This document shows positions 17,037 to 60,238 of a stretch of DNA of 64,000 bases, in pieces. Location: NCBI GenBank assembly GCA_021851895.1, contig JAJZQJ010000002.1, forward strand, positions 5,046 through 69,045. Reading direction: 5' to 3'. Source of the DNA: a bacterium. Its GTDB lineage: Bacteria; Patescibacteriota; Minisyncoccia; Phycocordibacterales; UBA6899. The notes beneath the pieces are model-generated. The model worked only from the letters and a program-made list of their open reading frames with translations. It was not told the DNA's origin and searched no databases. The number at the start of each line of letters is the position of its first letter. Positions within the stretch are counted from its first letter, which is position 1. Both the position numbers and the translations under genes were made by a program.

Positions 17037-17037
17037 C
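17019..17037 (+). repeat. att-like core, copy 1 (inside the tRNA 3' end, from the T-loop to the discriminator)
   Basis: CGAATCCTGCCGCCGGAGC, identical to 17229-17247. Confidence 0.6.
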
Positions 17038-17049
17038 AGAAAACATTAA

Positions 17050-17082
17050 TCCATGAAGCGAAGCTTCATGGATTTTTGTTTT
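17050..17082 (+). terminator. intrinsic terminator after the tRNA
   Basis: TCCATGAAGC-GA-AGCTTCATGGA followed by TTTTTGTTTT. Confidence 0.6.
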
Positions 17083-24083: not shown

Positions 24084-24086
24084 AAC

Positions 24087-25100
24087 ATGGCAAAGGTAAA
24101 ACAGGCAACAAAAACTTGGGAAGAGCTCGAGAAATTAAGACTCGAATTCGAACAGAGGCTCTTTCCGCAGGTTAAAGCAAAAATTGATGAAATAGAAGCC
24201 TATAGAGATACTCTTCTCGATGACAATGAAAAGAAGTCATTAAGCACGACTATTTCTGAGTTGTCGGATAAAATCACCGAACTAGAGGAGTCCTTCAAAG
24301 AAAAATTCAGTGACATAGAAACTTTGCATGAGAGGATTTTTCACGGGGATGAGGAGAATGATGCGTTGTCTGATCAGGTTGATGAGTTTGTAAATAAAGC
24401 AAAAGGAGAGCTTGCTGGCTTGAATACAAAACACGCTGATATTAATAGGTATCATGAAAAGGTATTTGGTGAGAAGGATGCTTCTGGAAAGTATTCAGGT
24501 GGGCTCGCGTCAGAGCTAGAAAAGTATGGAAAGAAGTATGAAGCCCTATTTGGCCAAATAGAAGGCTTATTGCCAGGTGCTACAAGTGCTGGTCTTGCTC
24601 AGGCATTTAGCGATAAGGTTGATGAATACAAGAAAGAGGCTTCAAAGTGGAAGTGGATTACTTTTGGCTCCTTGTGTATCGCAGTCGTTCTTAGTATCGT
24701 CTCATACTGGCTTGATCGTGGTCAGGTGCTCTCGTTTTCATTTGTCATGATCCGGCTTGCACAGAAATTGCCTTTTGTTTTGTTTGCAGTTTGGCTGGTT
24801 GTATATGCAAATAATCGACGTGCAGAAAATAAAAAACTCGAAGAGTCATATAAGCATAAAGAGGTAATCGCGAGATCTTTTGTGGGCTATAGGAAGCAAA
24901 TTGAGGATCTCGATCTCGACACTGAAGATAATAATTTACTTATTTCGCTCACGACAGGATTACTTGATGCCATCATGATCAATTCATCAGATTTCTTAAC
25001 AGCGACTGGCGAGAAGAGTCCGATTCATGAAATGCTTGATAAAGCTGCAGATACTGCGAGTGCCGCAGTATCTAGCCCTGTAATTTCTATAAAGAAATAA
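24087..25100 (+). CDS. coiled-coil / 2-TM protein of unknown function embedded between hsdM and hsdS (candidate membrane effector)
   Basis: 337 aa. About 190 aa of heptad-rich helical N-terminus, then two adjacent TM helices (WKWITFGSLCIAVVLSIVSYWL; LPFVLFAVWLVVYANN) and about 100 aa of C-terminus. ATG 3 nt after the hsdM stop and 3 nt before the hsdS start. Confidence 0.6.
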   Translation: MAKVKQATKTWEELEKLRLEFEQRLFPQVKAKIDEIEAYRDTLLDDNEKKSLSTTISELSDKITELEESFKEKFSDIETLHERIFHGDEENDALSDQVDEFVNKAKGELAGLNTKHADINRYHEKVFGEKDASGKYSGGLASELEKYGKKYEALFGQIEGLLPGATSAGLAQAFSDKVDEYKKEASKWKWITFGSLCIAVVLSIVSYWLDRGQVLSFSFVMIRLAQKLPFVLFAVWLVVYANNRRAENKKLEESYKHKEVIARSFVGYRKQIEDLDLDTEDNNLLISLTTGLLDAIMINSSDFLTATGEKSPIHEMLDKAADTASAAVSSPVISIKK

Positions 25101-25103
25101 TTC

Positions 25104-26246
25104 ATGGAACTAGCGAAACAAAAAATTCCGTCCACTTGGCAAAAACTTCGCCTCGGTGATTGTCTGACAATAAAGCATGGTAAATCACAAAAAGAAATTG
25201 AAGTAGTCGATGGTAAATATCCCATCCTTGCTTCAGGTGGAGTTATAGGGAGAACTAATACTCCACTATATAGTAAGCCATCAGTATTAATCGGTAGAAA
25301 AGGGACGATTGATAAGCCTAGATACATGGATACTCCTTTTTGGACGGTAGATACGCTATTTTACAGTCAGGTAAAGGACAACTCTGTACCCAAGTATTTG
25401 TTTTATGTATTCAATTTCATTGACTGGTATGAATACAATGAGGCTTCGGGAGTCCCAAGTCTTTCGTCGAGCACTATTTCCTCAATAGAAGTTCTACTTC
25501 CTCCTCTCCCTGAACAAAACCGCATCGTTTCGGTTCTTGAAACCTGGGATAAGGCAATTGAAAAACTTTCTCGAAAGATTGAAATTAAGAAGGAAATCAA
25601 GAGGGGATTGATGCGGGGCTTACTGACTGGCAAGCTCAGGGTAACAGGTCGCGGTGGGAGTTGGGATGTCTATAAAATCGGTGACATAATTGTTGAAAGT
25701 CGAATTCCTTCCAAGAGTTTTGATGTTACTAAAAGGATTAGTGTGCGACTAAATATGAATGGCGTAGAGAGTAGGGAAGTGCGAGGTACTGAGGCTGAGG
25801 GCTCGACCATGTTTTTCGTTAGGAGCGCTGGTCAGTTTGTTTATGGAAAGCAAAATTTATATAAGGGAGCGATGGGGATTATTCCAGAACAGCTTAATGG
25901 TTATGAGAGCACTCAAGATATCCCCTCTTTTGATTTCAGGGAAGGATTTGATTCTAAGTGGTTCTTGTATTTCATGGGCAGAGAAAGTTTTTATTCGCAA
26001 CTTGAAGATATTGCAACTGGTTCAGGGTCCAAGCGAATTCATCCACGAGATTTATTTAAAATTAAGATTCGGGTACCTAAATATGACGAACAGTTAGCAA
26101 TTGCATCTGTGCTATCGGTTGCCGATTCGGAAATCCGCATACTTACCCAAAAACAGCAGTGTCTAGAGAGGCAGAAAAAGTTTCTCCTTAATAATCTTGT
26201 CACTGGAAAAATTCGTACTCCAGAAAACCTACAATATGCTAAATAA
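25104..26246 (+). CDS. hsdS: type I R-M specificity subunit (two TRDs)
   Basis: 380 aa. Two TRDs separated and followed by conserved regions (LLPPLPEQNRIVSVLE...; VPKYDEQLAIASVL...). Confidence 0.85.
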   Translation: MELAKQKIPSTWQKLRLGDCLTIKHGKSQKEIEVVDGKYPILASGGVIGRTNTPLYSKPSVLIGRKGTIDKPRYMDTPFWTVDTLFYSQVKDNSVPKYLFYVFNFIDWYEYNEASGVPSLSSSTISSIEVLLPPLPEQNRIVSVLETWDKAIEKLSRKIEIKKEIKRGLMRGLLTGKLRVTGRGGSWDVYKIGDIIVESRIPSKSFDVTKRISVRLNMNGVESREVRGTEAEGSTMFFVRSAGQFVYGKQNLYKGAMGIIPEQLNGYESTQDIPSFDFREGFDSKWFLYFMGRESFYSQLEDIATGSGSKRIHPRDLFKIKIRVPKYDEQLAIASVLSVADSEIRILTQKQQCLERQKKFLLNNLVTGKIRTPENLQYAK

Positions 26247-29200
26247 AGTCCATTTTGATGAAGCGCGTCAGGTACAGTTGCCCGCAGTAGAGTTGCTCAT
26301 AAGCCTTGGTTATGAGTATATTTCGGTGAGCGAGGCGCTGCGTGAGCGTGGGGGAGATGAACGTAACGTAATACTGCGTGATATCGCGCGTGCGAAGTTA
26401 ATGGAAATTAATAGCTATGAGCTCGATGGTGAAAAGATGCAATTCACTCCTCGCGATGTGAATGAGGCTATTGATGAGCTCGAAAACCTTCCATTTGAGG
26501 GACTTCAGAAGACCGCACAAAACATTTACCGCATGATCATGCCGACGAGTGGCGGGAAGACTGTCGAGGTGCGTAAGGGAGACTCGAAAAACTTTCGTTT
26601 CATCGATTTTGCGGAACCCCATAATAATGCTTTTCATGTGACGGTAGAATATACCGTCGTTGGTAAAGAAGAGATCCGCCCGGATATCGTTTGTTTTGTG
26701 AATGGTTTTCCTATTGCGGTTATCGAAAGCAAGAAGCATACGGTATCGGTGGAAGAAGCACTAGAGCAGATGGTGCGCAATCAAGGCGTCGAATATGCTC
26801 CAAAACTATATACCTTTGCACAGATACTTGTGGGCTCAAATGGTACTGATTTCCGCTATGGTACAACCGGCACTGGCGAGAAATTTTATGCAGTCTGGAA
26901 AGAAAAGCCTAGAGAGAAAGGAGAGGCGGATCTTGAGCGACTTGATGCGCGCGTAAAGGAATTAATTGCTCAGCCGATTGCCGTAGGTGTGTATCAAGAA
27001 TTGCTCAATGACTTGAGCCGAGGCCAATCACATCATGAGCAACTTTGCGATCGCCCTATTACTGCGCAAGATCGCAGTATCGTCGCACTCTTTACGCCAG
27101 AGCGCTTACTTGATCTCACAAAGCACTTTGTGATTTTCGATGCAATGGAGAAGAAGATTGCACGCTATCAGCAGTATTTTGCTATTGAGAAGATGCGTCG
27201 CCGTGTGATGGAGAAGGAGGCCGCACCTGAGGGCGGCGAGCGTCGCCGTGGCGGTATCGTCTGGCATACACAAGGGTCTGGAAAGTCGCTGACGATGGTG
27301 CTCTTCGTGAAGGCGCTTATAGAGGATGAGCATATTAAGAATCCTCGTGTCATTATTGTTACCGACCGCAGAGATCTTGATAGGCAAATCAAGGGAACGT
27401 TTGAGAATTGTGGACTCAAGAAGGACGTCGTCCAGGCAAAGACGGGACAGCACCTGCTTGATCTTATTCAAGAGAAGAATCTTGGAGTCATCACCACTCT
27501 CGTGCAAAAGTTTGAGAGCGTCGCGAAGAAGCGTGAAGATTTTGTTGACCCCGATGAGAACATCTTTGTGCTCATCGATGAGGCGCATCGTACCCACGGC
27601 GGTATGGCGAGCCTTGAGATGTCCCGCACAATACCGAATGCTTGCTATATTGCCTTTACGGGTACGCCACTCATGCGCGAGGAGAAGGAGAGCTGGAGGC
27701 GTTTTGGGGCATATATTGACAAATATACCATTGATGACGCCGTGCTCGATGGTAATGTGCTCCCACTGATCTATGAGGGACGCTTTGTGCCGCTTGTGCA
27801 GAATGCAAAGAAGATTGATGAGCTTGTTGATCGTGTAAAAGAGCGTGCAATACACAAATACCAGTCCAATGGTGAAGAAGATAAACGCGAAGAGGAGTCG
27901 GTAAATCGCGAAGCGTTGGTCAATAATCCACAGCGCCTCCGTGAAATAGTCCATGATATTGAATCGCATTATAAGATGGAGCTGCAGGGGACAGGACTTA
28001 AGGCGCAAGTTGTTGCTCCCAGCAAATTTGCGGCAGTAAAAATGCAACAAATGTTTCTCGAGAGCGGGTTGGTGAAGTCTGCGGTCGTTGTCTCAGATGA
28101 GTCGGGGATTGTTCATGAGGATGACTACCGAAGGCAGGAAGTTGTCGATTTCTTGGATAAGATAAAAGATACTCATTCGAGTATTGAAGAATATGAGAAA
28201 GAAGTGATTCGCGACTTCAAGGATAATGCAGATGGTGTCGAAGTGCTTATCGTTGTCCATAAGCTCCTCACGGGTTTTGATGCCCCAAGAAATACCGTGC
28301 TTTACCTCGCAAAGAGTTTGAGGGACCATGACTTACTTCAAGCAATTGCTCGTGTGAACAGGCTTTGCGATAAGGGCAAGAAGCAGAAAACATCAGGGTA
28401 TATTATTGATTATTCCGAGAATGCACAACACCTCAAGAGTGCGATGCAGCTCTTTGGGAACTACGAGGAGGACGATGTGCACGGCACGCTTGTGGACGTG
28501 GGAGAGAAGATGCAGGAACTGGCACAAGCATATGCGGCCATACATGATATTTTTCGTGGCGTGCATGGGGCGAAGACGGTAGAACCGTTCATGGAGGTGC
28601 TCAAGGCAGAGGATACACGCGTGGAATTTAATGCCGCAGTAAATACATACACAAAGCTCTTCAGTGAATGTCTTGCGTTGAAGGATTTCAATGAGAACTT
28701 CAAAGATATTGATCTGTATAAGCGAGAGCTCAGAAAGTTCGTCGAATTAAGAAAGCTTTCGCGGTTCAGATACGGCGAGCGAACGGACTTTAATGAGTAC
28801 AAATTTGCGTTGATGCGTATCCTTGATCAGTATGTTGATACCGAAGGAGGCGTGGAGCGTCTTACTGAAAAGATTGATGTTCGCGATATTGCTCAGGTGC
28901 GTAAGGCTGTTGAAGAGATCGTAGATAGCAAGGAGAAGGCTGAGGCGATTGCGACACAGGTGAATAAGACTATTCACGACCGTGAGGCTGAGGATCCTGT
29001 CTACTATAAGTCACTCTCGGAACGAGTTGAGGAAATTATACGAGCGATGCGAGAGGGGAGAATGCAAGACCTCGTTGCCCTTGAAGGGCTCGAAGAATTG
29101 CTCATTGCCGCAAATGAGAAGAAGCAGGCCTCAGTACCAAGTCAGATTGAAGCTGAACATGGAGCAGATCTATTTTATCGAAATTTACTTCCACATTTTG

Positions 29201-29454
29201 AGCGTTTTCATCTTATCTCAGATCAAGAGGTGATGCTTTCATTGAGTGTCTTTAAGATTATTAAAGAATTTGCAATAGTCGATTTTGAGCATAACGTCGA
29301 TGTACAGCGCCGCATGCGTAGTGCGCTTGATGACTACTTGTATGATGGTTTCCCTTCCGAGTGGAATGTTTCGCTATCTTCGAGAGAAAGGGGAGACATA
29401 GTTGCCGCAATGGTTGAACTCGCAAAACACAATCATGAGCTCTTTAGTGCATAA
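26236..29454 (+). CDS. hsdR: type I R-M restriction subunit (helicase/endonuclease)
   Basis: About 1072 aa. N-terminal nuclease region, SF2 helicase motifs (GSGKSLTM Walker A; DEAH: LIDEAHRTHGG; motif VI QAIARVNR). The ATG at 26236 overlaps the hsdS stop. Confidence 0.9.
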   Translation: MLNKVHFDEARQVQLPAVELLISLGYEYISVSEALRERGGDERNVILRDIARAKLMEINSYELDGEKMQFTPRDVNEAIDELENLPFEGLQKTAQNIYRMIMPTSGGKTVEVRKGDSKNFRFIDFAEPHNNAFHVTVEYTVVGKEEIRPDIVCFVNGFPIAVIESKKHTVSVEEALEQMVRNQGVEYAPKLYTFAQILVGSNGTDFRYGTTGTGEKFYAVWKEKPREKGEADLERLDARVKELIAQPIAVGVYQELLNDLSRGQSHHEQLCDRPITAQDRSIVALFTPERLLDLTKHFVIFDAMEKKIARYQQYFAIEKMRRRVMEKEAAPEGGERRRGGIVWHTQGSGKSLTMVLFVKALIEDEHIKNPRVIIVTDRRDLDRQIKGTFENCGLKKDVVQAKTGQHLLDLIQEKNLGVITTLVQKFESVAKKREDFVDPDENIFVLIDEAHRTHGGMASLEMSRTIPNACYIAFTGTPLMREEKESWRRFGAYIDKYTIDDAVLDGNVLPLIYEGRFVPLVQNAKKIDELVDRVKERAIHKYQSNGEEDKREEESVNREALVNNPQRLREIVHDIESHYKMELQGTGLKAQVVAPSKFAAVKMQQMFLESGLVKSAVVVSDESGIVHEDDYRRQEVVDFLDKIKDTHSSIEEYEKEVIRDFKDNADGVEVLIVVHKLLTGFDAPRNTVLYLAKSLRDHDLLQAIARVNRLCDKGKKQKTSGYIIDYSENAQHLKSAMQLFGNYEEDDVHGTLVDVGEKMQELAQAYAAIHDIFRGVHGAKTVEPFMEVLKAEDTRVEFNAAVNTYTKLFSECLALKDFNENFKDIDLYKRELRKFVELRKLSRFRYGERTDFNEYKFALMRILDQYVDTEGGVERLTEKIDVRDIAQVRKAVEEIVDSKEKAEAIATQVNKTIHDREAEDPVYYKSLSERVEEIIRAMREGRMQDLVALEGLEELLIAANEKKQASVPSQIEAEHGADLFYRNLLPHFERFHLISDQEVMLSLSVFKIIKEFAIVDFEHNVDVQRRMRSALDDYLYDGFPSEWNVSLSSRERGDIVAAMVELAKHNHELFSA

Positions 29455-30169
29455 ACAAAACATACGACATAAAGGTGAAGTCTTTGAGTACCAAGTGTGG
29501 CGTTCTGGTCGTAAAACTCTCGCCCTCACGGTAACTCCTGCCATGGAGCTTATTGTGCGTTCTCCTTTTGAAAAGAGCCTAGAGGAGATTGAGAATTTTC
29601 TCATGCGTAAAATACAATGGGTTCGAAAGCAGCTCGCATTCTTCGGCACACAGGAGCCTGCTCAGGTTGAACGTCGATATATTTCCGGGGAAGCGCATTA
29701 TTATCTTGGGAGGCAGTATATGCTCGAAGTTGCTGAAAGTCATCGAGAATATGTAAGTGTTTCTCGTGAGCGTATTATGCTTTATCGTAGGTCCGAGAAT
29801 TCTCGTGATTTGATGGGAGCAAAGCAATTATTTCTGAAGTGGCAGAGTGAGATGGTTGCGAAACATCTTAATGAGCGATATCGTGCAATGTCACGACTCT
29901 TTGATTATAAGGACATACCAACTATGGAGATCAAAGCCATGGAAAAGCGTTGGGGGAGTTACCGTGTGAAGACAAAATCAATCGCGCTTAATGCAAAGCT
30001 GATCCATGCTCCACTCGATGCCATTGATTATGTTATCGTGCATGAACTTTGTCATCACGAGCATCATGATCATGGTAAGGAGTTTTATAAGCTTCTAAGT
30101 AGAAAGATGCCAAACTGGCAGGTTGAAAAGAAGAAACTTGAGCGATACGGCGCTCTTGTGTGCGGATGA
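29435..30169 (+). CDS. DUF45/YgjP-like zinc metallohydrolase (WLM/SprT-like), overlapping the hsdR 3' end
   Basis: HELCHHEHHDHGKEFY motif (HEXXH...H). This family is commonly encoded next to hsdR. The ATG at 29435 lies 20 nt inside hsdR. Confidence 0.7.
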   Translation: MSSLVHKQNIRHKGEVFEYQVWRSGRKTLALTVTPAMELIVRSPFEKSLEEIENFLMRKIQWVRKQLAFFGTQEPAQVERRYISGEAHYYLGRQYMLEVAESHREYVSVSRERIMLYRRSENSRDLMGAKQLFLKWQSEMVAKHLNERYRAMSRLFDYKDIPTMEIKAMEKRWGSYRVKTKSIALNAKLIHAPLDAIDYVIVHELCHHEHHDHGKEFYKLLSRKMPNWQVEKKKLERYGALVCG

Positions 30170-30171
30170 GT

Positions 30172-30196
30172 AAAAATGGGGTCATGCCCCATTTTT
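30172..30196. repeat. REP-like palindrome AAAAATGGGG-TCATG-CCCCATTTTT (also acts as a terminator)
   Basis: Same family as the hairpins flanking the RAYT gene at 35882 and 36665. Confidence 0.55.
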
Positions 30197-30257
30197 CTTG
30201 CAACTCATTTGCATCTCCATGGTATAATACCCATATTCTTGTCTCTTCTGCCCTGTT

Positions 30258-30938
30258 ATGAAACTCTCGAAATCTTCACATTTCCGGCCACTTGGGGAGG
30301 ACCGTTCACTGCATCAGCATCAACGGCAAATGCTCCATATGCTCGCTGCTATCGAGGCGTCGCGCGCTGAGCTTTCGCGACTTCGCGCGGAATTGCGGAA
30401 GGTGGGAGAGGAGTCAGTGCGCGATCCGCTTACTAATCTACTCAATACGCGTGGTCTCGAGCGTGCTTGGGAGCGTTTTGCGTCCGCATTCACTCGTGGT
30501 CACTATAGGGAGGTCGCGATCGCTTTCATCGATCTCAATGGTTTCAAGTTCGTGAATGATTATGCGGGACATGATGTTGGTGACGGTCTTTTGCGTGCGT
30601 TTGGTGTGCGGCTCTCTGAAACATTACGCCCGACCGATATCGTTGCTCGTGTTGGTGGGGATGAGTTCGTACTCGTGCTCCCTGGTGTTGGAGAGGGCGG
30701 TGCTCGAGCGCTCGTCGATCGCATTCGTATGCGCTCTGCAGATCTTTATATGGATCACCCGGATTGTATACGTGTCGCGAAAGCGAGCGGTGCTGGTAGA
30801 GTGCTCGACTTCTCTTCGGGAGCTATCGATGTCCGACATCCTGATACACTTCCGCCGCTCTCGCATCTACTTAAAGCGGCGGAGGGACGTGTTGAGAAAT
30901 TCAATGCGCGTCGCCAGCTTTTCGATGTGCATGCATAG
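30258..30938 (+). CDS. GGDEF-domain diguanylate cyclase (short coiled-coil N-terminus), GC-rich
   Basis: DPLTNLLNTRG, IDLNGFKFVNDYAGHDVGD and RVGGDEFVLVL (GGDEF motif). Confidence 0.8.
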   Translation: MKLSKSSHFRPLGEDRSLHQHQRQMLHMLAAIEASRAELSRLRAELRKVGEESVRDPLTNLLNTRGLERAWERFASAFTRGHYREVAIAFIDLNGFKFVNDYAGHDVGDGLLRAFGVRLSETLRPTDIVARVGGDEFVLVLPGVGEGGARALVDRIRMRSADLYMDHPDCIRVAKASGAGRVLDFSSGAIDVRHPDTLPPLSHLLKAAEGRVEKFNARRQLFDVHA

Positions 30939-30991
30939 ATAAAAGAAAAACTCCTCAGTGGAGTTTTTTCATTTCAACGAATAAGTTTTCG

Positions 30992-31294
30992 TTAGAAGAT
31001 CTTGATGAGTACGATGAGTGTTGTGGTGATGATAGCGAAGCCAAATATCGTCTTCCCGAGAAAAGTGAATGCTGACTGCTTTTCTCCATCGAGATAGAGC
31101 ATGATCGGTTTGCCGAAAAAGAGGTATCCCATGACTGCCGCAGAGAGTGTGACGAGTGAGAGTGCGGCGATGGAATCAAGGAAGGTGTCGCGAGTATTCT
31201 GTTTTCCGATCGTATGGATCACGGTAGCAACCGTGATGATATAGGCTTCGGCGAAAAGGCTATTGATATAGGGATTATGGGATAGTTTTTGCAT
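30992..31294 (-). CDS. small hypothetical membrane protein
   Basis: 100 aa with 3 hydrophobic helices. Confidence 0.4.
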   Translation of the reverse strand: MQKLSHNPYINSLFAEAYIITVATVIHTIGKQNTRDTFLDSIAALSLVTLSAAVMGYLFFGKPIMLYLDGEKQSAFTFLGKTIFGFAIITTTLIVLIKIF

Positions 31295-31389
31295 AAGCGT
31301 TGTTTCATTATGGAGAACACTGCCAAAGTAGAAAAGTCACTGTTTGCCTGGTACCGGCATACTGATAGAATAGAGTAAACAAATAGCCT

Positions 31390-31953
31390 ATGTCTTCTAA
31401 GAAACTTACAAAAACACAAAGTGAGGCGCTGCTCACTGTATTACACGCGCGTTTTGAGAAGCACTCAAAGCGACATAAAACAATAAAGTGGGCTGCGGTC
31501 GAGGCGCGACTCCGCGCGCACGGAGAAAAATTGTGGTCGCTTAGTGAGATGGAGCGTACTGAAGGTGAGCCTGATGTCGTTGGCTTTGATAAAAAGTCCG
31601 GCGCATACGTATTTATGGACTGTGCTCCAGAGAGTCCGAAGGGGAGGAGGGGTGCGTGTTACGATCGCGAAGGACAAAAGTTGCGAGAAAAAGATGGCTT
31701 ACACCCCGGCAGTGCGATGGATATGGCAAAGCTGATGGGTATCGAGATGCTTTCCGAGGAAGAGTATCGTACCTTGCAGGCACTGGAGGCATTCGATCAA
31801 AAGACATCGAGTTGGGTCCGCACACCTGAAGCGATTCGTAAGAAAGGGGGAGCACTTTTCTGTGATCGTCGCTATGATCATGTATTTCTCTATCATAATG
31901 GTGCTGAGTCGTTTTATTCCGCAAGAGGATTCCGCGGAGTACTGCACGTATAA
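31390..31953 (+). CDS. conserved hypothetical protein (DUF4256-like, assigned from memory)
   Basis: 187 aa, soluble and conserved-looking (GEPDVVG...GAYVFMDC..ESPKGRR..CYDRE). Followed by a terminator hairpin at 31953-31975. Confidence 0.4.
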   Translation: MSSKKLTKTQSEALLTVLHARFEKHSKRHKTIKWAAVEARLRAHGEKLWSLSEMERTEGEPDVVGFDKKSGAYVFMDCAPESPKGRRGACYDREGQKLREKDGLHPGSAMDMAKLMGIEMLSEEEYRTLQALEAFDQKTSSWVRTPEAIRKKGGALFCDRRYDHVFLYHNGAESFYSARGFRGVLHV

Positions 31954-31975
31954 AAACAGGCAATGCCTGTTTTTG
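31953..31975 (+). terminator. intrinsic terminator AAAAACAGGCA-ATGCCTGTTTTT
   Basis: Perfect palindrome with A/T runs. Confidence 0.6.
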
Positions 31976-32011
31976 TTTGTACTTTGGTTTTGAATTGTTT
32001 ACAATGTTCTT

Positions 32012-32611
32012 ATGAAGAAGATTCTTGTTATCAAGGGCCACCCAAGAGATATCTGTTTTTGCAATCAGCTCGTTGATCAGTATATCGAAGGTGCGAAGAA
32101 AGAGTATGCGGAAGTGAAGGTGCTTAACATTCATGAATTGCAGCTCGAGCCGTGGCTCAAGTATGACTGGGACCGCAATCACGATTCGATACCATTCTCT
32201 GATGATTTGAAGCAGGCGCAAGAGCTCATTAAGTGGAGCGACCATATCATGATCGCCTATCCGACGTATTGGGCGGGACCACCAGCGATCGTAAAATTGT
32301 TCATTGAGGTCATTGTTACTTCTGGTTTCGCTTTCAAATACTATCAACCATTGTGGGGGATCATTCCACGCTGGCATCGACTTCTTAAGGGTCGTACGGC
32401 GACGATCATCTCGACGATGGATGCGCCGCCCATATTCATGAACGTCGTTGATCGCGACCCGGGCGGTAAGATGATGTTCGATGTGCTCAGTTTCGTTGGC
32501 ATAAAGCTGAAGCATAAATACTATTTCGGTTCCGTCATCCTTAGAGTCAAGAAGATGCATGATGTGTGGCTCAAGAAGGCATTCCGCGCAGGAGAGAATG
32601 ACGCACGATAA
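32012..32611 (+). CDS. NAD(P)H-dependent oxidoreductase, flavodoxin-like fold (quinone reductase family)
   Basis: MKKILVIKGHPR... N-terminus is typical. TACAAT -10 sits 6 nt upstream of the ATG. Confidence 0.65.
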   Translation: MKKILVIKGHPRDICFCNQLVDQYIEGAKKEYAEVKVLNIHELQLEPWLKYDWDRNHDSIPFSDDLKQAQELIKWSDHIMIAYPTYWAGPPAIVKLFIEVIVTSGFAFKYYQPLWGIIPRWHRLLKGRTATIISTMDAPPIFMNVVDRDPGGKMMFDVLSFVGIKLKHKYYFGSVILRVKKMHDVWLKKAFRAGENDAR

Positions 32612-32676
32612 AACGAGGCATATCCTCGTTTTTTCATATACTGTCATTATAGTTACTCCGGGTGTATAATTACATT

Positions 32677-32913
32677 ATGGATACTTCATTAAGTTTTGCG
32701 CTCCCTGTGTGGGTACAGGCGCATCAGTCATTATCATTCGTGGCGATCATTTGGAGTATGTTCTGGGCAGGGCTCGCGCTTTGGCATACTGCGAAGAGAG
32801 GGAAGGTTGGTTGGTTCCTCGTCTTCATGCTCGTGCATACATTGGGTTTGCTCGAGATCATCTATCTCTTCGGCGTGCTCAGATTGAAATTTGCCGATCT
32901 TTTTAAGAAATAA
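32677..32913 (+). CDS. small hypothetical membrane protein (2 TM)
   Basis: ATG 32677 lies 6 nt downstream of TGTATAAT. 78 aa. Confidence 0.4.
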   Translation: MDTSLSFALPVWVQAHQSLSFVAIIWSMFWAGLALWHTAKRGKVGWFLVFMLVHTLGLLEIIYLFGVLRLKFADLFKK

Positions 32914-33008
32914 AAACGGGAAATGGCCCGTTTTTTGATTTTTGAAAGACCATACATCTCGTGACTTACATAGATGCGATTTGTGCTCAATTATGTTATA
33001 CATAGCAC

Positions 33009-34166
33009 ATGATGAAAGTTGCATTCATTCATAATGAGAAGAAGATCGGAACCGGAGCTCATTACATCAACGATCTCATGGCACTTCGCCTTAAGGAGGC
33101 TGGTGTTGATCTGAAAAACTTCTACCCATCAGTCTCGCTCGATGGCCCGGTCCATATGGGTGGCTTAAGGAATATCCTCTTTTTCTACTCCTTGCTCGAG
33201 AAGCGACAGAAGATACTCAAATATGATCTCATTCAGGGGACGACATACACGCCGCTCCCGTTTCTTTCCTTTCCTATTCCTGTCATCTCCCATTTTGGGT
33301 CAACGACGAAGGGATTTTTAGATGCGACGCCGCTTGCGAGCAAGATGAAGGAAGATACGAAGGACATCTGGTACCGACTCAAGAAGGATGGAGCTATTAA
33401 AGAGCTTAACCTCATGACGCGCCGACCGCTTCGTGATATTGCGGAAATCGAGGAATATGTCGCTAAGCGTGCTGATGCGGTCGTTGCAACTTCGCAGAAT
33501 GTGAAAAATGAACTGCTTGCAATGGGTGTCAAAGAAGAGCGGGTTCATCTCATTCATAATGCAATAGAGGACTATTGGTTTGAGGCGGCGGATCTGCCGA
33601 TGACTGATGCGCCACAAATCGTCTTTCTTGGTCGTCTTGGTGGAGATGCATTCAATTTGAAGTTGAAGGGTCTCGATCGTTTGATCGATGCCTATCAGCA
33701 CTTCAAAGATATCGGAAAGACGACGATATGCATGACGACGAATAAGCCACTCGTGAATTGGTTTTTGACACACCTCTCCAGCCATTCACTTTTCGTGAAT
33801 GTACAGAAGGACAAGATACCCGATATCGTGAGGAAGATGCGGGGGAGCATCCTCTTTATCACTTCTCGTTATGAAGGATTCTCGTTGAGTCTTATCGAAG
33901 GTATGTCGCAGGGGCTTGTGCCCGTAGCGTACCCAGTCGGTGTGGTTCCAGAGATCATACGGAACGGCGAGAATGGTTTCATTGTTCATTCGCAGAAAGA
34001 GGCCATTGAGAAGATCACTCTTTTGCTCCGCGATAAGGAATTGCGTGAGCGTTGTTCGCGGGAGGCGGAAAAGACCTCAAAAGAATTCAAAGGAGTGTTC
34101 ATTGCTGAGAAGTTGATGAAATTATATGAGGAGGTCGTGCATTCGAGTAAGAAGAAGGAACAATAA
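33009..34166 (+). CDS. glycosyltransferase family 4 (GT-B fold)
   Basis: C-terminal ITSRYEGFSLSLIEGMSQGLVPVA...GENGFIV motif typical of GT4. Confidence 0.8.
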   Translation: MMKVAFIHNEKKIGTGAHYINDLMALRLKEAGVDLKNFYPSVSLDGPVHMGGLRNILFFYSLLEKRQKILKYDLIQGTTYTPLPFLSFPIPVISHFGSTTKGFLDATPLASKMKEDTKDIWYRLKKDGAIKELNLMTRRPLRDIAEIEEYVAKRADAVVATSQNVKNELLAMGVKEERVHLIHNAIEDYWFEAADLPMTDAPQIVFLGRLGGDAFNLKLKGLDRLIDAYQHFKDIGKTTICMTTNKPLVNWFLTHLSSHSLFVNVQKDKIPDIVRKMRGSILFITSRYEGFSLSLIEGMSQGLVPVAYPVGVVPEIIRNGENGFIVHSQKEAIEKITLLLRDKELRERCSREAEKTSKEFKGVFIAEKLMKLYEEVVHSSKKKEQ

Positions 34167-34255
34167 AACGGGGGAGCGCCCCGTTTTTTCATGTTTGCAT
34201 TATGGAGATTTCGGCGTAATATGCCCTAAAGGTATGTACATCATAAGGAGGTGCT

Positions 34256-35032
34256 ATGCACCCGCTGCGGCCCTACATCGGAATCACTGATTTCATGAAT
34301 GCGAAGCAAGTGGAGCTCATGCGCAAAGTATTTCTCAAGCATGCACCCGCGCATTCTGCGCGCGTACTCCACGTTGGCGTAATGATGAGCTATAAGACGC
34401 TCAACGATATCGAGACCAAGTGGTCGAAGGCTTTTCCTGATAAGGAATCGATCATCGATATCTTCTGGTCCGACGATGTCTTCAACTGCTTGCACTACGC
34501 TGACTACGATCACGCAAATGATTTCGCGCTCGATCTTGCGACTGCGATCGCTTATGGAGGAAGCCACCTGCACGGATTGCAGCTCGATATGGTATGGCCG
34601 AACCCGAGCGATATTTTTCAGGCGATACAGTTTTCGGGTGTGGCCCCTGAGATCATCTTGCAGGTAGGAAAGAATGCAATCGAGGCAGCAGGTAATGATC
34701 CTAAACAGGTCGTTGACCGACTTGGGGATTATCATGGCCTCGTTCACCGCGTACTTCTCGACAAGAGCATGGGGAAGGGGCTCGGCATGGATGCAGAGGG
34801 CCTGCTTCCTTTCGCTCGCGCGATTCGTGAAGCATTCCCGGACATGGGGATCGGCGCAGCTGGCGGCCTCGGGCCAATGACGATGGACCTCGTCACTCCG
34901 CTCCTTGCGGAGTTCTCCGATCTTTCCATCGACGCCCAGGGACGTCTGCGTCCAAGTGGTAATGCCCTCGATCCGATCGATTGGGGTATGGCGGGGGAAT
35001 ACCTCCGCAAGGCGATCGAAATGACGCGATGA
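34256..35032 (+). CDS. hypothetical protein (GC-rich gene; possible alpha/beta-barrel enzyme)
   Basis: 258 aa. AAGGAGG RBS 5 nt upstream. Balanced composition, whereas the antisense 264-aa ORF is R/S-rich. Confidence 0.45.
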   Translation: MHPLRPYIGITDFMNAKQVELMRKVFLKHAPAHSARVLHVGVMMSYKTLNDIETKWSKAFPDKESIIDIFWSDDVFNCLHYADYDHANDFALDLATAIAYGGSHLHGLQLDMVWPNPSDIFQAIQFSGVAPEIILQVGKNAIEAAGNDPKQVVDRLGDYHGLVHRVLLDKSMGKGLGMDAEGLLPFARAIREAFPDMGIGAAGGLGPMTMDLVTPLLAEFSDLSIDAQGRLRPSGNALDPIDWGMAGEYLRKAIEMTR

Positions 35033-35118
35033 CATGATAACGGGGCAGTGCCCCGTTTTTGCTTGCTCTCTGCATTTTACTCCTGTACTATCACCTTAGA
35101 GTATTTGAAGGAGCTACT

Positions 35119-35448
35119 ATGCGAGCGCGGAAGACGATTCCTGTCAGCAAGATCCCTGATACCATCCGAACGCTGCTTGACAGTGAGTTCGGTATGCTCG
35201 AATTGAGCAGTGAACGCTCCGTGCACCGATTGCATGATGAACAAGATGGGACAGGGCAGGGCGAACTGCACGTCTCCTTTCTCCCGAATGGAGACATGGT
35301 CGTCTCTATTACGGGGGATGAAGAGCAGGTTTCACCCGCGCTACGCTTTCGTACTTATGAGGGCGGGGGACACTCGCTGCGCACACGCAACGCACTGTTC
35401 ATCCTCCTTGAGGCGATTCGTCTCGACAATCTCTATAACCCTATTTGA
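35119..35448 (+). CDS. hypothetical protein
   Basis: 109 aa from MRARKT... GAAGGAG RBS 6 nt upstream. Confidence 0.4.
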   Translation: MRARKTIPVSKIPDTIRTLLDSEFGMLELSSERSVHRLHDEQDGTGQGELHVSFLPNGDMVVSITGDEEQVSPALRFRTYEGGGHSLRTRNALFILLEAIRLDNLYNPI

Positions 35449-35466
35449 TGCACAACACCCCTTCGG

Positions 35467-35874
35467 GTGTTTTTGTTTTTGGTGTACACTATACTCATGG
35501 AAACCATAATGAAAGGAGCACAAGTGCAATCAGAGCGAGCGCTCCAGTATTTTGAACTTCCTATTTATCCATTGCGCGCTCCCGATCATGCGAAGTACAT
35601 CATCGCGCAAAATGAGAAAGGAGAAGAGTATCTGATCGCTGTTTCCTTGCGAGATTATCCGAATGATCTCTATCATGACGATATCTTGCGCGAGGCACGT
35701 CTTGTCTTGGGTAAGACCCTGCGCTGTATTGGTGGTGGACGATTAAAGCCAGGAGAGCATGGCGAATGGTTCGTTACAGGGAAAAGTACGGTCTTCGGAG
35801 AAGATCTCGACAAAGAACGCACCGCTGCAACATTTACGCAGCATTTCAAGGGCACACGGTTCATCGTCGGATGA
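35467..35874 (+). CDS. hypothetical protein
   Basis: 135-aa ORF. The probable start is an internal Met (METIMKGAQ...). Confidence 0.35.
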   Translation: MFLFLVYTILMETIMKGAQVQSERALQYFELPIYPLRAPDHAKYIIAQNEKGEEYLIAVSLRDYPNDLYHDDILREARLVLGKTLRCIGGGRLKPGEHGEWFVTGKSTVFGEDLDKERTAATFTQHFKGTRFIVG

Positions 35875-35881
35875 GTATATG

Positions 35882-36690
35882 AAAATGGGGTCTGACCCCA
35901 TTTTTCTTCGTTTTGTGTGGTATAATGTTGAACACTTACTATATAATATATATTGCATATCAAATGGCACGTCAGCATCGCCTCGATCTCCCTGGTCGCG
36001 CATTCCACATCATGAATCGCGCAGTTGGACGCTTGCAGTTATTCAACAATCCTCAGGATTACTTATTGTTTTTAAAAGTCTTTAGGGAGACATGGGAAGT
36101 CAATCCCATCACTATCTATGCGTACTGCGTCATGCCAAATCACTTTCATGTGCTTGTACGTGCTCAGGCGGAAGGGGATATTTCCCGCTTCATGCAGCGC
36201 CTCGCGACGACCTATACTCGTAGGCTACATTTGAAAACAGGGACTGTGGGAGGTGGGCCAGTATTCAAAGGGCGTTATAAATCAATTCTTGTTGATGACG
36301 AATTTGTTTTTAATACGATGTTGCGATATGTGGAGCTGAACGCCGTGCGCGGACAACTCGTATCTCGAGCAGAAGAGTGGGAGTGGGGCAGTGCATACGC
36401 GAGAATAAAGAATGATATGGCATTTGCTCAGATCCTTGCTGAGTTGCCTGAAGAAATACCGAAATCGGCTGATGCCTATCTCGAGTGGTTGCGTGAAGAT
36501 GTTGAAGATCAATCCATTAAGCAAATTCGTGAGTCGATCAAGAAGGGCAGGCCGTATGGCCGCCCGAGTTGGGTCGAGCTCATGGCTGAAGAGCACAATC
36601 TTGCATATACAATGCGTGGCCAAGGTCGGCCAACTATTAAATAACATTACAACACACATTTTAACAAAAAATGGGGTCAGACCCCATTTT
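35882..36690 (+). mobile_element. REP-RAYT-REP unit: REP-associated tyrosine transposase flanked by inverted-repeat hairpins
   Basis: AAAATGGGGTCTGACCCCATTTT (35882-35905) and AAAAAATGGGGTCAGACCCCATTTT (36665-36690) bracket the IS200-like Y1 transposase gene. Confidence 0.65.
35964..36644 (+). CDS. REP-associated tyrosine transposase (IS200/IS605-like Y1 HuH transposase)
   Basis: HuH motif YAYCVMPNHFHVLV. Catalytic Y region (ELNAVRGQLV..EEWEWGS) is typical of RAYT. Confidence 0.8.
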   Translation: MARQHRLDLPGRAFHIMNRAVGRLQLFNNPQDYLLFLKVFRETWEVNPITIYAYCVMPNHFHVLVRAQAEGDISRFMQRLATTYTRRLHLKTGTVGGGPVFKGRYKSILVDDEFVFNTMLRYVELNAVRGQLVSRAEEWEWGSAYARIKNDMAFAQILAELPEEIPKSADAYLEWLREDVEDQSIKQIRESIKKGRPYGRPSWVELMAEEHNLAYTMRGQGRPTIK

Positions 36691-36708
36691 CTGCTATAAT
36701 TTGATAGT

Positions 36709-37086
36709 ATGAAAAAATTCAAAATAACATTCTGGACCACTACGATGATCATCGCGCTCTTTGAGGGCGGTGGCTCCATACTGACGTATGGTTCGCCGAT
36801 GGCGGTCGCGGGAATAACGCATCTCGGTTATCCTGTTTACTTCGTAACGCTGATCGGTGCCTTCAAGGTACTTGGTGCACTCGCGCTCGTCATTCCGCAG
36901 GTGCCGGTTCGGGTGAAGGAGTGGGCATTTGCAGGTTTCGGTATCGATTTCATTTCTGCATCGGTCAGTATTGCGGTGGTCGACGGACTTGGCTTCGGCG
37001 CGTTCTTCCCGCTCATCTTCCTCGGTCTCCTTATTGCATCAAATGTAAGCCATCACAAACTGCTCGATGTGCAAAAAGCACAGTAA
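36709..37086 (+). CDS. DoxX family membrane protein
   Basis: 125 aa, 4 TM, DoxX-like. ATG lies 8 nt after TGCTATAAT. Confidence 0.65.
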   Translation: MKKFKITFWTTTMIIALFEGGGSILTYGSPMAVAGITHLGYPVYFVTLIGAFKVLGALALVIPQVPVRVKEWAFAGFGIDFISASVSIAVVDGLGFGAFFPLIFLGLLIASNVSHHKLLDVQKAQ

Positions 37087-37087
37087 G

Positions 37088-37112
37088 AAAAAACGGGGAT
37101 ACCCCGTTTTTT
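37088..37112. terminator. bidirectional terminator AAAAAACGGGG-ATA-CCCCGTTTTTT
   Basis: Member of the ACGGGG..CCCCGT hairpin family. Confidence 0.6.
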
Positions 37113-37470
37113 ATTGGAACAACCCTAGCTTGAAGACGACGAGAAGGTATAGTGATGCAAGCAAGAAGAATACCGCCATTCCGAGTCCTATCGCTTTATA
37201 TGCACCGAATTTTGGCGCAAGTATGATCACGGTGATCATGTAGGGTACCCAAGATACAAATGTTCCATATAGTACGAATTTCGCATTCTGGCTCACTGCG
37301 AGACCGCCTCCCGTTTGTCCAATGAAGATATAAGAGATGAGGGTGAAGACGGGCATGAGTGCGAGGAAGCCGGAGAGGAGTCGTGAACCGCTCTGATCAA
37401 GGACGACGATGAGCGTCGTGAAGAATCCACCGGAAATGAAATAGATGAGCATGTTGGTCATGTGGTGCAT
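37111..37470 (-). CDS. hypothetical membrane protein
   Basis: About 119 aa from MHHMTNM..; 4 TM. The track's N-terminal extension overlaps the decarboxylase gene. Confidence 0.4.
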   Translation of the reverse strand: MHHMTNMLIYFISGGFFTTLIVVLDQSGSRLLSGFLALMPVFTLISYIFIGQTGGGLAVSQNAKFVLYGTFVSWVPYMITVIILAPKFGAYKAIGLGMAVFFLLASLYLLVVFKLGLFQ

Positions 37471-37516
37471 TATAGCAAAGAAAAACCCGCGGTTGAAACC
37501 GTGGGTGTGGTAGTGT

Positions 37517-38704
37517 TCACTTCGGCAGAATCGCAGTCCGAAGCGGAGCGAATCCGTTGAAGTTGACGGCGGCGTAGCTTGCCGTGTAGGCGCCCGTCGA
37601 GAGCAGGTAGATGCGGTCGCCTTCCTTGAGGGAGGCGGGAGCCGCATACAGATCCTTCTGGTACATGATGTCCGCGCTGTCGCAGGTGGGGCCCGCGATG
37701 ATCACATCGCCCCAATCCTCGCCACTTTCGTGTGCGTGATCGGGGAAGTAGATCGGGTAGCGGATGGCTTCGCCCTCAGTCTCGGCGAGTCCGCCGAAGC
37801 GGCCGATGTCGAGGAAGAGCCAGCGTACGGGATCGTTGTTCGACTTCTTGCTGATGCGGACGACCTCGGTGCAAAGCACACCAGCATCACCCGCGAGGGA
37901 GCGGCCGGGCTCGACGATGATGTCGAGGTCGTCGATCTTGAAGTCCTCGCGGAGGTACTGCATGACCGAGGACCCGTACTCTTCCTGGGTCTGCGTCGGC
38001 TTGAGGTACTCTGCGGGGAATCCTCCGCCGATGTTAATGCACTTCAGCGCGATGTCCTTCTCATGGAGGAGGGCGTCGAACAGGTGCTTCACCTGGGCGA
38101 GAGCAGTGTCCCACTGGCCGATGTCGCGCTGCTGGGAGCCGACATGGAACGCGATGCCGTACGGCACGAGTCCCAATTCTTTGGCCTTCACAGCGAGGCG
38201 GAACGCCATGCCGGGATGGCAGCCGAACTTGCGGGAGAGGGGCCAGTCGGCACCCTTTCCGTCGAGGATGATCCTGAAGTTGACCTTGGCGCCCGGGGCG
38301 CACTCGGCCAGGTTGATGAGGTCCTCCTCGGAGTCAGAGGTGTACAGCGTGACCCCATGCGTGAACGCGAACGCGATGTCCGCGCGCTTTTTGATGGGGT
38401 TGCCATAGCTGATCTTCTCACCGGTGATGCCGAGCGCGAGCAGCTGCTCGATCTCGGGCCGCGAGGCGACGTCGAAATTCGAGCCGCGCTTCGCGATCGA
38501 GGTGATCACCTCGTCCATCGGGCACGCCTTGATGGCGTAGAAAATGCGCGTGCCCGGCATCGAGCTCACCAGACGATCGTAGGCCGCATTGATGCGGTCA
38601 AGGTCGATGATGAGCAGCGGCGTCTGTTGCGTCTGCGCGAACTTCTGGATGTTCTCGAAGTCGAGCTGCGGAAGCAGCTGGGCCGCGCGGTTCTTGTTCT
38701 CCAC
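37517..38704 (-). CDS. PLP-dependent decarboxylase, fold III (ornithine/lysine/diaminopimelate decarboxylase family), strongly GC-rich
   Basis: FYAIKACP (PLP-lysine motif), a GGG loop (INIGGGFP) and C-terminal beta-domain motifs (GPTCDSAD..GAYT). Confidence 0.8.
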   Translation of the reverse strand: MENKNRAAQLLPQLDFENIQKFAQTQQTPLLIIDLDRINAAYDRLVSSMPGTRIFYAIKACPMDEVITSIAKRGSNFDVASRPEIEQLLALGITGEKISYGNPIKKRADIAFAFTHGVTLYTSDSEEDLINLAECAPGAKVNFRIILDGKGADWPLSRKFGCHPGMAFRLAVKAKELGLVPYGIAFHVGSQQRDIGQWDTALAQVKHLFDALLHEKDIALKCINIGGGFPAEYLKPTQTQEEYGSSVMQYLREDFKIDDLDIIVEPGRSLAGDAGVLCTEVVRISKKSNNDPVRWLFLDIGRFGGLAETEGEAIRYPIYFPDHAHESGEDWGDVIIAGPTCDSADIMYQKDLYAAPASLKEGDRIYLLSTGAYTASYAAVNFNGFAPLRTAILPK

Positions 38705-40150: not shown

Positions 40151-40311
40151 AGAACAGGCATGATAAAAAACCGCTGCCAATGGCGGTTTTTTGCATTGCG
40201 CCAAATATTACAACACGAAATGGCATTCTGTCTTCATCACAAAAACTTCATCTGGGTGTCATAATATAATAAGCATGAGTAGCTCTCGTAGTTACTCCTT
40301 AATTTATATTT

Positions 40312-45195: not shown

Positions 45196-45501
45196 ATGAA
45201 CCTACTTGAACTACAAGAATGGGTCAGGGCTGATTGGGAACAGCATTCACCTGTGAGGCCCGATCCACATATGCAGCTGCTTTACCTCTTTGAAGAGCTC
45301 GGTGAAATGGCCGAGGCGATCCGTCAGAGATCGGGGCAAAAAGAACATGCGACACACACGACTGATCTTGGAGAAGAGATGGGCGATGTGCTCGTCGCAC
45401 TTGCAACGGTTGCAAATAATTATCAGGTCGATCTTGAAGAGGCTTTCGAGAAGGCGAGGGCGAAGATCGAAGCACGACATAAGTTGGGCACTGAAGCATA
45501 A
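45196..45501 (+). CDS. MazG-like nucleotide pyrophosphohydrolase (single-domain)
   Basis: EELGEMAEA...EEMGDVL..LA motifs. ATG 45196 lies downstream of GCTATACT. Confidence 0.6.
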   Translation: MNLLELQEWVRADWEQHSPVRPDPHMQLLYLFEELGEMAEAIRQRSGQKEHATHTTDLGEEMGDVLVALATVANNYQVDLEEAFEKARAKIEARHKLGTEA

Positions 45502-45523
45502 AACCGGCATATGCCGGTTTTAA
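45500..45523. terminator. bidirectional terminator AAAACCGGCATATGCCGGTTTT
   Basis: Perfect palindrome between convergent genes. Confidence 0.6.
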
Positions 45524-52697: not shown

Positions 52698-52716
52698 AAA
52701 ACCGCAATGCGGTTTT

Positions 52717-59796: not shown

Positions 59797-59815
59797 TTCT
59801 TTCTCTCACATATTT

Positions 59816-59840
59816 AAAACCGCTCCTCGTGAGCGGTTTT
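59816..59840 (+). terminator. intrinsic terminator AAAACCGCTC-CTCGT-GAGCGGTTTT
   Basis: Perfect 10-bp stem with a T-run. Confidence 0.65.
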
Positions 59841-60238
59841 AAATATGTTCCGTTTTTCGCATCGCTGCTTTGCAGCAATGAGCGGTGCTGCGCACCCGCT
59901 TGCGAAAAACTGGTTTCTACTGCTTTGGTTTGGCCCCGGTTATTTTGCCAGGGGAGGCCTCACGCTTCGCTCTCGCGGTACCATTGTACCGCTTCAAGCT
60001 CCAGCGAGGCCTCCTCTGCCAAAATTCCTCGGGGTTTCATGGGGCAGGGCGGGTGCGATTCGCGCAGGAGCATGATTTTATGTTTGTCGTAGATACGGAG
60101 GGGGTTCATGGGTTTGGGCGTGTAAAATGCGCACAAAATACTCGGGGTTTGATTAAGAGGGAAAAGGCGGAGCAGTGCATTTTACATTACGATTATCCAT
60201 GTTAGTCTTCTCTAAGACATAACACCACCAAGGAGAGC

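Follow-up and report, generated by a model that had tools for sequence, protein, structure and literature searches.

A probable TIRtron with terminator-like flanking palindromes in a Candidatus Paceibacterota genome

A 64-kb stretch of DNA (hereafter the window) from a groundwater Candidatus Paceibacterota (Patescibacteria) contains a Y1 HuH transposase gene bracketed by two palindromes, and similar G+C-rich hairpins stand after the surrounding genes. The question raised by this locus is whether the palindromes belong to the transposase, in the manner of repetitive extragenic palindromes (REPs) and a REP-associated tyrosine transposase (RAYT), or are simply the terminators of the adjacent genes. 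Together with about 5 kb upstream (contig L210) and about 8.5 kb downstream (L212), about 77 kb of this genome was readable. The element is interpreted here as a TIRtron, with a probability of roughly 0.75: a single group 1 RAYT gene (TnpAY1 subclass 2.1, TIRYT) with cognate GGGGWSAS inverted repeats in a Paceibacterota host. The terms were introduced by Di Nocera et al. 2013, who described RAYT-like genes with terminal inverted repeats (TIRs) as "TIRtrons" and their proteins as "TIRYTs" (PMC3733652).

The two flanking repeats, TIR-L and TIR-R (Table 1), have the core AAAATGGGGTC[T/A]GACCCCATTTT on both sides of the gene as exact 23-nt inverted repeats, and the palindrome scan showed that they are exact reverse complements over the 23 nt. 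The bracketing of a Y1 HuH gene by two palindromes, as proposed in an earlier sequence-only reading of this DNA, was thus borne out. The whole unit from TIR-L through TIR-R is 809 bp long. The pattern ATGGGG-N3-7-CCCCAT has exactly three matches in the 64 kb (30176-30192, 35885-35901, and 36671-36687), compared with 0.00 in shuffles. TIR-R contains GGGGTCAG, which matches GGGGWSAS; TIR-L contains the reverse complement. The RNA folds of both have an energy of -13.4 kcal/mol (z = -3.4 for TIR-L and -3.9 for TIR-R). The sole asymmetry of the palindrome is its central base, which is T upstream and A downstream of the gene. No GT[AG]G tetranucleotide is present at the hairpin foot, where the flanks read AAAATGGGG..., and no RNA family in Rfam overlaps the hairpins. 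A text search of the literature found no paper with the strings GGGGTCAGACCCC or GGGGTCTGACCCC. The conserved leader between TIR-L and the gene may serve as its promoter.

The transposase open reading frame (ORF) encodes YAYCVMPNHFHVLV. The 226-aa protein scores 50 bits against Pfam Y1_Tnp (PF01797) and 73.2 bits (E = 1.9e-20; cutoff 80) against the NCBIfam model NF047646 for the REP-associated tyrosine transposase (REP_Tyr_transpos). The IS200 model NF033573 gives 13.9 bits, with a cutoff of 55. In an alignment of 13 sequences (the window protein and 12 homologues), H60, H62, Y122, and N126 are invariant. The tyrosine motif of the window protein is YVELNA, with A in place of P, and reads YIELNP in the relative L004; the VFKGR of the window protein is VFQGR in the relatives L002-L004. 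A Bac_DnaA_C tail is present in the homologues P0010 and P0018. A PDB sequence search with the protein gave no match below E = 0.8. The criteria published for subclass 2.1 (PMC6006769, Table 1) are NH[YF]H/NHVH, FQ/W[EQ], YIELNP/Y[IV]HLNP, and a median of 238 aa with a C-terminal tail. Based on NHFH, VF(K/Q)GR, Y(V/I)ELN(A/P), the 226-aa length, and the Bac_DnaA_C-tailed homologues, the window protein fits TnpAY1 subclass 2.1, which corresponds to the group 1 RAYTs and the TIRYTs; the assignment was made by motif, not by phylogeny. Judged from its sequence, the gene encodes a RAYT-type Y1 HuH protein and not an IS200 transposase. The latter was rejected because of the model score, the tyrosine motif, and the copy number, since the window has the gene once and the additional ~13 kb not at all. 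Carriage of homologues by phages or plasmids is very rare: 16 of 72,556 plasmid records and three loci on viral contigs.

Three Logan contigs encode homologues of the window protein (L002, L003, and L004, with 73%, 71%, and 64% identity, respectively). In all three, ATGGGGAC-N-GTCCCCAT or ACGGGGAC-N-GTCCCCGT stands on either side of the gene. The stems are lineage-specific, being AAAATGGGGAC-N-GTCCCCATTTT in L002 and L003 and AAAAACGGGGAC-N-GTCCCCGTTTTT in L004; the repeats of L003 and L004 have GGGGACAG at the GGGGWSAS position. A second full copy, of the window's own type (ATGGGGTCTGACCCCAT), lies about 58 bp further in L002, together with a partial copy, and L004 has a third perfect copy after its DoxX_2 gene. 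When 15 copies from eight loci were aligned, three of the 11 stem pairs were found to be changed on both sides (A-T/T-A, T-A/C-G, and T-A/A-T), and 94% of the cells were paired, compared with 26-58% when the 3' partners were slid by 1-3 columns. The ATTACAACAC block, which includes TTAC, follows the gene in all four related contigs, and in L003 and L004 it is additionally found 5' of TIR-L. The repeated stretch of L004 runs on through a promoter-like box, TGG(T/C)(A/G)TAAT.

Distant genomes were searched with the pattern AAAYGGGGWCNGWCCCCRTTT, using one genome per species; the chance expectation is about 0.5 matches in 596 Gb. At least 120 stretches were identified. Among the matches listed, most are high-GC metagenome-assembled genomes (MAGs) of the Burkholderiales, Steroidobacteraceae, Vicinamibacterales, and Actinomycetes; several contigs per MAG are often matched, and many matches are inverted doublets 25-100 bp apart. 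Of the 120 motif-selected loci listed, six code for homologues with 27-35% identity to the window protein, and five of these have the hairpin beside the gene. L095 (Vicinamibacterales) and L025 (Actinomycetes) have it on both sides, and L015, L086, and L039 (Gamma/Betaproteobacteria) only 3' of the gene. In the converse test, 80 homologues from JGI metagenomes were examined for GGGGWSAS or its complement within 200 bp, with a background of 4.6% per 200-bp window. The motif was found upstream in 26 of 74 cases, downstream in 19 of 63, and on both sides in 15 of 57, mostly in forward orientation upstream and in reverse orientation downstream. It is thus 6- to 8-fold enriched beside these 80 independent homologues. 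A scan of the same loci for perfect-stem hairpins missed most of the repeats, which are imperfect palindromes. The pairing of gene and hairpin in four related contigs and in distant phyla, together with the compensatory stem changes, supports the view that the two flanking palindromes are the cognate repeats of the gene.

Table 1. Features of the unit and the A[C/T]GGG hairpins around it (positions in the window)
Feature	Position	Strand	Remarks
Diverged third copy, AAAAATGGGGTCATGCCCCATTTTT	30172..30196	.	starts 3 nt past the YgjP-like gene, at the end of a type I restriction-modification (R-M) operon
ACGGG-type hairpin	32912..32935	.	after the DUF5652 gene; only ACGGG/CCCGT, three G's
ACGGGG-type hairpin	34165..34187	.	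after the GT4 glycosyltransferase gene
ACGGGG-type hairpin	35039..35057	.	after the 258-aa gene
TIR-L (left flanking repeat), AAAATGGGGTCTGACCCCATTTT	35882..35904	.	11-bp stem; starts 8 nt past the stop of the Ocnus-like gene (ends 35874)
Promoter-like leader of the transposase gene	35905..35963	+	TGGTATAAT at 35918-35926; conserved in L002, L003, L004
RAYT-type Y1 HuH gene	35964..36644	+	226 aa; H60/H62 (NHFH), Y122 (YVELNA)
ATTACAACAC block	36646..36655	+	12 nt 5' of TIR-R; from alignment
TIR-R (right flanking repeat), AAAATGGGGTCAGACCCCATTTT	36668..36690	.	starts 24 nt past the transposase stop codon
Hairpin AAAAAACGGGGATACCCCGTTTTTT	37088..37112	.	after DoxX_2, between convergent genes

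A conserved gene order was observed at L015, L086, and L039: ACAAA(A)TTAAATGGGGTCAGACCCCATTTAATTT follows the homologue, and the next gene downstream is glutamate-synthase-like (…GLYDPS.EHDACGVGF…); the synteny with this gene is kept across the Gamma- and Betaproteobacterial classes. Moreover, inverted doublets of GGGGWC-N-GWCCCC on several contigs per genome were seen in L014, L018, L063, L074, L078, L117, L121, L123, and others, in genomes of the Burkholderiales, Steroidobacteraceae, Vicinamibacterales, and Pseudoduganella. These dispersed doublets look like REPIN-type populations of group 1 RAYTs, a group reported to be without REPs.

The published descriptions are close to the element in the window. 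Many TIRtron repeats carry the consensus GGGGWSAS, some are partly or wholly self-complementary, and some make up families of moderate abundance, arranged in dimers or clusters; in many genomes that have a TIRYT gene, there is no repeat family (PMC3733652). The 16-mers flanking group 1 genes were reported to number only about 12 per replicon (Bertels et al. 2017, PMC5581495). Quentin et al. 2018 found no REP-like structures for subclass 2.1, which comprises the group 1 RAYTs of Bertels et al. and most TIRYTs of Di Nocera et al., and described a GT[AG]G foot for canonical REPs (PMC6006769). Because GGGGWSAS is present and the GTAG foot is absent, the window repeats fit the TIRtron and fail the canonical REP definition. 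In common with TIRtrons, the element has a C-terminally tailed Y1 HuH protein of some 230 aa in which the NH[YF]H and YxELN(P) motifs occur; the gene is single, with inverted GGGGWSAS repeats, and repeat families are small or absent, with some of the published repeats being self-complementary. There are also differences. The host phylum, Patescibacteria, is not among the hosts described (PMC3733652, PMC6006769, PMC5581495); in the window, the 23-nt repeat is perfectly palindromic, and its A/T runs stand exactly at the gene ends, which gives it a likeness to a bidirectional terminator; and the extra ATTACAACAC block is repeated directly, not invertedly, in two relatives. The locus had earlier been called a REP-RAYT-REP unit. 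The RAYT-type gene and its cognate flanking repeats stand, whereas the GT[AG]G foot and a dispersed high-copy family were not found in the ~77 kb. The more exact name is TIRtron, group 1 RAYT, or TnpAY1 subclass 2.1, all of which have already been published (PMC3733652, PMC6006769, PMC5581495).

Several points weigh against this interpretation. The NCBIfam score falls just short of the NF047646 cutoff, and the tyrosine motif has NA instead of NP. With only three copies in ~77 kb, one of them diverged and all within 6.5 kb, active dispersal is not apparent. The ATTACAACAC block precedes both hairpins on the 5' side in L003 and L004, an arrangement that is direct and not inverted, unlike the classic inverted layout of L095. 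The central base of the palindrome in the window is flipped relative to L003, L004, and L095, where it is the opposite. Furthermore, cleavage and mobility are attributed to group 1 RAYTs by analogy, and the putative terminator function of the hairpins is deduced from their position and fold.

Under the TIRtron interpretation, the repeat in this genome would have become a perfect palindrome with an 11-bp stem, set between an A-run and a T-run. If it works like the E. coli REP transposase and IS608, the Y1 HuH protein may recognise the hairpin in single-stranded DNA. It would cut and rejoin the DNA beside the hairpin, and hairpin units might occasionally be copied or moved; this would account for the solo and tandem copies at non-orthologous sites in the relatives. 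Each unit, with its G+C stem and a U-run on either strand after a stop codon, is very probably a bidirectional intrinsic terminator, which would terminate both the upstream gene and the transposase gene itself. The ACGGG(G) hairpins would mostly be ordinary terminators formed under the same compositional rules, and the one at 37088 is probably an old copy of the repeat.

The terminator role was examined across the region. Between 29.4 and 37.1 kb, a hairpin with an A-run, a G+C stem, and a T-run stands at the end of each of the 11 genes, its start lying between 2 nt upstream and 24 nt downstream of the stop codon; a consensus terminator scan detects most of these hairpins. A-run and T-run flanks, noted in the sequence-only reading for the AACGGGG family, were seen by direct reading on all seven A[C/T]GGG hairpins. 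Their fold energies are -12 to -16 kcal/mol; z is -2.4 for the hairpin at 35039 and about -3.3 to -4.5 for the other six. TIR-L and TIR-R have the features of intrinsic terminators, namely a G+C-rich stem-loop and a U-run right after the stop codon; TIR-L is the sole hairpin after the Ocnus-like gene, and TIR-R is the sole hairpin after the transposase gene. In L003 (665-700) and L004 (230-290), the element directly follows a 109-aa gene. The own terminator of this gene is intact in the window and in the sister contigs L205 and L207 (AAAAAGCCCCC-N4-GGGGGCTTTTT in L207), half-deleted in L003 (AAAAGCCCCC without the 3' arm), and gone in L004. TIR-L is the only hairpin left after the 109-aa gene in L003 and L004, and these observations fit a takeover of the terminator job by TIR-L. 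The A-run and T-run belong to the repeat even in genomes with ~70% GC, so that co-option of the repeat as a terminator is likelier than its derivation from one. Both directions had been proposed for this locus; the former is favoured here, and the latter appears less likely. Paired uptake sequences, the DUS of Neisseria and the USS of Haemophilus, are also genome-specific motifs that form an inverted pair after genes and serve as terminators; unlike the window hairpins, they are tied to DNA uptake instead of a transposase, and they number in the thousands.

A more speculative extension, which we consider unlikely, is that in these streamlined Paceibacterota genomes the group 1 RAYT and its hairpin serve the host by copying ready-made bidirectional terminators locally into intergenic sites. 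In L004, the copied unit would comprise a terminator and a promoter. Such seeding would explain the clustering of the A[C/T]GGG hairpins within 7 kb of the gene, with the ACGGGG hairpins as older decayed copies, and the decay of the native terminators in L003 and L004.

Alternatively, all seven hairpins might be ordinary terminators, the flanking two being alike through duplication of a terminator when the gene was inserted, with no link between protein and hairpin. Every gene from 29.4 to 37.1 kb does have such a hairpin, unrelated look-alikes of the AAAACCG[C/G] type exist at 40165, 45499, 52692, and 59808, and no copies of the repeat were found outside 30-37 kb in the ~77 kb. However, the hairpin occurs beside homologues in at least four other phylum-level groups, with GC of about 44-70%; the motif is 6- to 8-fold enriched at the 80 homologues; the stems covary with the gene lineage; and the published TIRYT consensus is matched. 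As an account of the whole locus this explanation is improbable. It is largely refuted for the two flanking copies, and is the best reading for the hairpins at 32912, 34165, and 35039.

The ACGGG(G) hairpins had been described as a second family of four palindromes with AACGGGG stems. The pattern ACGGG-N3-8-CCCGT indeed has four matches in the 64 kb (motif starts 32916, 34168, 35040, and 37093), compared with 0.19 expected; the hairpin earlier placed at 35018 is really at 35039, and that at 32912 has three G's. The WC-N-GW centre is missing from the hairpins at 32912, 34165, and 35039, and no orthologues of these three were found that are repeat copies; the L207 orthologue of the 258-aa gene ends with an unrelated hairpin. 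Look-alike terminators of the form AAAACCG[C/G]...[C/G]CGGTTTT occur at 40165-40192, 45499-45522, 52692-52722, and 59808-59848, with no transposase near, and this group shows the ease of terminator convergence in this genome. Since the AAAACCG[C/G] group is equally good, and few 4-5 nt G/C stem starts are possible after an A-run, the ACGGG(G) hairpins are probably for the most part ordinary terminators, and for those at 32912, 34165, and 35039 this is the most likely interpretation. As a proven second repeat family, ACGGG(G) was rejected, given the comparable group away from the gene. The proposed family is therefore not convincing as a repeat family, and comparative support exists for the 37088 copy only. 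This hairpin (ACGGGGATACCCCGT) is orthologous to the perfect repeat copy after DoxX_2 in L004 and to a decayed ACGGGGTTCAGTCCCGT in L207, and either of its strands gives a fold (-15.6 and -13.6 kcal/mol). It probably represents an old, decayed repeat copy that still acts as a bidirectional terminator.

A canonical active REP/REPIN-RAYT system would involve hundreds of dispersed REPs, with both palindrome families as subfamilies like Y, Z1, and Z2 of E. coli. The flanking, inverted arrangement fits such a system. The flanking repeats of L004 have ACGGGG stems, which suggests that the C and T variants are interconvertible, and among the matches listed, Burkholderiales-like MAGs have the motif on several contigs, often as inverted doublets. 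The A[C/T]GGG hairpins are also all near the gene: by explicit criteria, there are 26 terminator-like palindromes in the window and 11 in 30.1-37.2 kb, and all seven A[C/T]GGG hairpins (30.1-37.1 kb) are among those 11 (hypergeometric P = 5e-4, for a region picked post hoc). On the other side, the GT[AG]G foot is absent, subclass 2.1 is without REPs according to Quentin et al., and the flanking 16-mers of group 1 number about 12 per replicon according to Bertels et al. The other ~70 kb of readable sequence yielded no copy; of the four ACGGG(G) hairpins, three are without the WC-N-GW centre, and no repeat-copy orthologue was found for those three. A canonical system thus seems a poor candidate, with little probability.

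The E. coli REPtron (TnpA-REP/RayT with REP/BIME; Ton-Hoang 2012; Messing 2012, PMC3479197) likewise combines a Y1 HuH gene of domesticated appearance with its own extragenic palindromes on both sides, and these lie in 3' untranslated regions; an effect on termination and mRNA stability has been proposed for E. coli REPs. However, the foot of the window hairpin is without a GTAG guide, and the E. coli system belongs to subclass 2.2. The hundreds of dispersed copies in E. coli are not seen in the ~77 kb here, and the window protein has no detectable sequence match to the solved structures.

The third palindrome, earlier described after the R-M operon, is present (Table 1), with a diverged centre. 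It reads TCATG where the other two have TC-N-GA, and GGGGWSAS is not matched. In common with TIR-L it has the TTTTTCTT 3' flank and a downstream TGGTATAAT box; its RNA fold is -15.6 kcal/mol. Homology to TIR-L is plausible but not proven. No further copies of the repeat were found in the other ~70 kb of the ~77 kb (window, L210, and L212). This distribution points to a small local repeat family, which is normal for this element class; a genome-wide REP system in this genome is unproven.

Least probable is an autonomous IS200/IS605-type insertion sequence with the hairpins as its left and right subterminal ends: the hairpin and ATTACAACAC are directly repeated at both ends in L003 and L004, as in the left and right ends (LE/RE) of IS608, the block includes the IS608 target TTAC, and the gene is missing from the locus in two sister genomes, but the IS200 model gives 13.9 bits against a cutoff of 55, the tyrosine motif is Y---N(A/P) and not Y---Q, the 226-aa protein has a C-terminal tail, the window has one copy and no tnpB, the neighbourhood kept among the window, L003, and L004 (64-71% identity) points to vertical descent, and homologues are rare on plasmids (16/72,556) and viral contigs (three loci). 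IS200/IS605 elements such as IS608 and ISDra2 share the HuH/Tyr chemistry and subterminal hairpins recognised as single-stranded DNA. Their TnpA is about 150 aa, with Y---Q, multiple near-identical copies, and often tnpB; the window protein is longer, has another tyrosine motif, is encoded by one gene copy in the ~77 kb and without tnpB in the window, and does not match the IS200 model.

The history of the locus was traced in two syntenic sister contigs, L205 (DoxX 87% identical; groundwater metagenome) and L207 (DoxX 81%; GCA_035583355.1). Both keep the backbone of the 258-aa gene, the 109-aa gene, DoxX_2, and PMSR-SelR-MscL; the transposase gene is absent at the locus. A perfect solo copy, TAAAATGGGGTCTGACCCCATTTTA, stands after BacA in L207; none of the window copies is at an orthologous site, and no repeat copy was found on the L205 contig. 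The transposase gene neighbourhood is common to the window, L003, and L004 despite 64-71% identity. The pattern fits vertical descent with loss, in a variable region with type I R-M systems in it as well. The stretch from the 258-aa gene to PMSR-SelR-MscL (22569-37647, compared with L205 and L207) is itself a variable hotspot in related Paceibacterota, where type I R-M operons, cupredoxin, BacA, N_methyl, and Ocnus-like genes have been gained, lost, or reordered.

For the annotation of this genome, the element is a routine feature. For the element class, the group 1 RAYT/TIRtron would be extended to Patescibacteria. Part of the largest and least understood RAYT group would have a true REP-like hairpin, GGGGWC-N-GWCCCC with A/T-run flanks, where Quentin et al. 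reported none. Conservation of this hairpin extends over several phyla, and among the matches listed, some Betaproteobacterial and Acidobacterial MAGs have it scattered as inverted doublets. The likeness of the hairpin to a bidirectional terminator offers a concrete idea of how the host might benefit from keeping the element.

As for the host and the rest of the window, homologues of DoxX_2 led to the close relatives, one of which (P0024) is labelled Candidatus Paceibacterota. The window also has DUF5652 and DUF5667 genes, which we take to be consistent with Patescibacteria. According to Pfam, the neighbours of the transposase gene are an Ocnus-like gene and a DoxX_2 gene. A 264-aa ORF (34241-35035, - strand) is exactly antisense to the 258-aa gene (34256-35032), and neither has a match in Pfam; the former is probably a functionless mirror ORF. 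An apparent tRNA gene (16707-17045, + strand) is split by a group I intron (16736-16991; Rfam RF00028, 74.5 bits), with the 5' part TCCGGTGTAGCTCAGCGGTAGAGCAGTACGC... and the 3' part ...GGTCGCAGGTTCGAATCCTGCCGCCGGAGCA; ARAGORN called no tRNA within the window. Intron-containing tRNA genes have recently been described for Patescibacteria (PMC13011429), so this intron is also consistent with such a host. After this tRNA gene, there is a 27-nt hairpin, AATCCATGAAGCGAAGCTTCATGGATT (17048-17074), an identical copy of which is present in the sister genome L207 (1802-1828).

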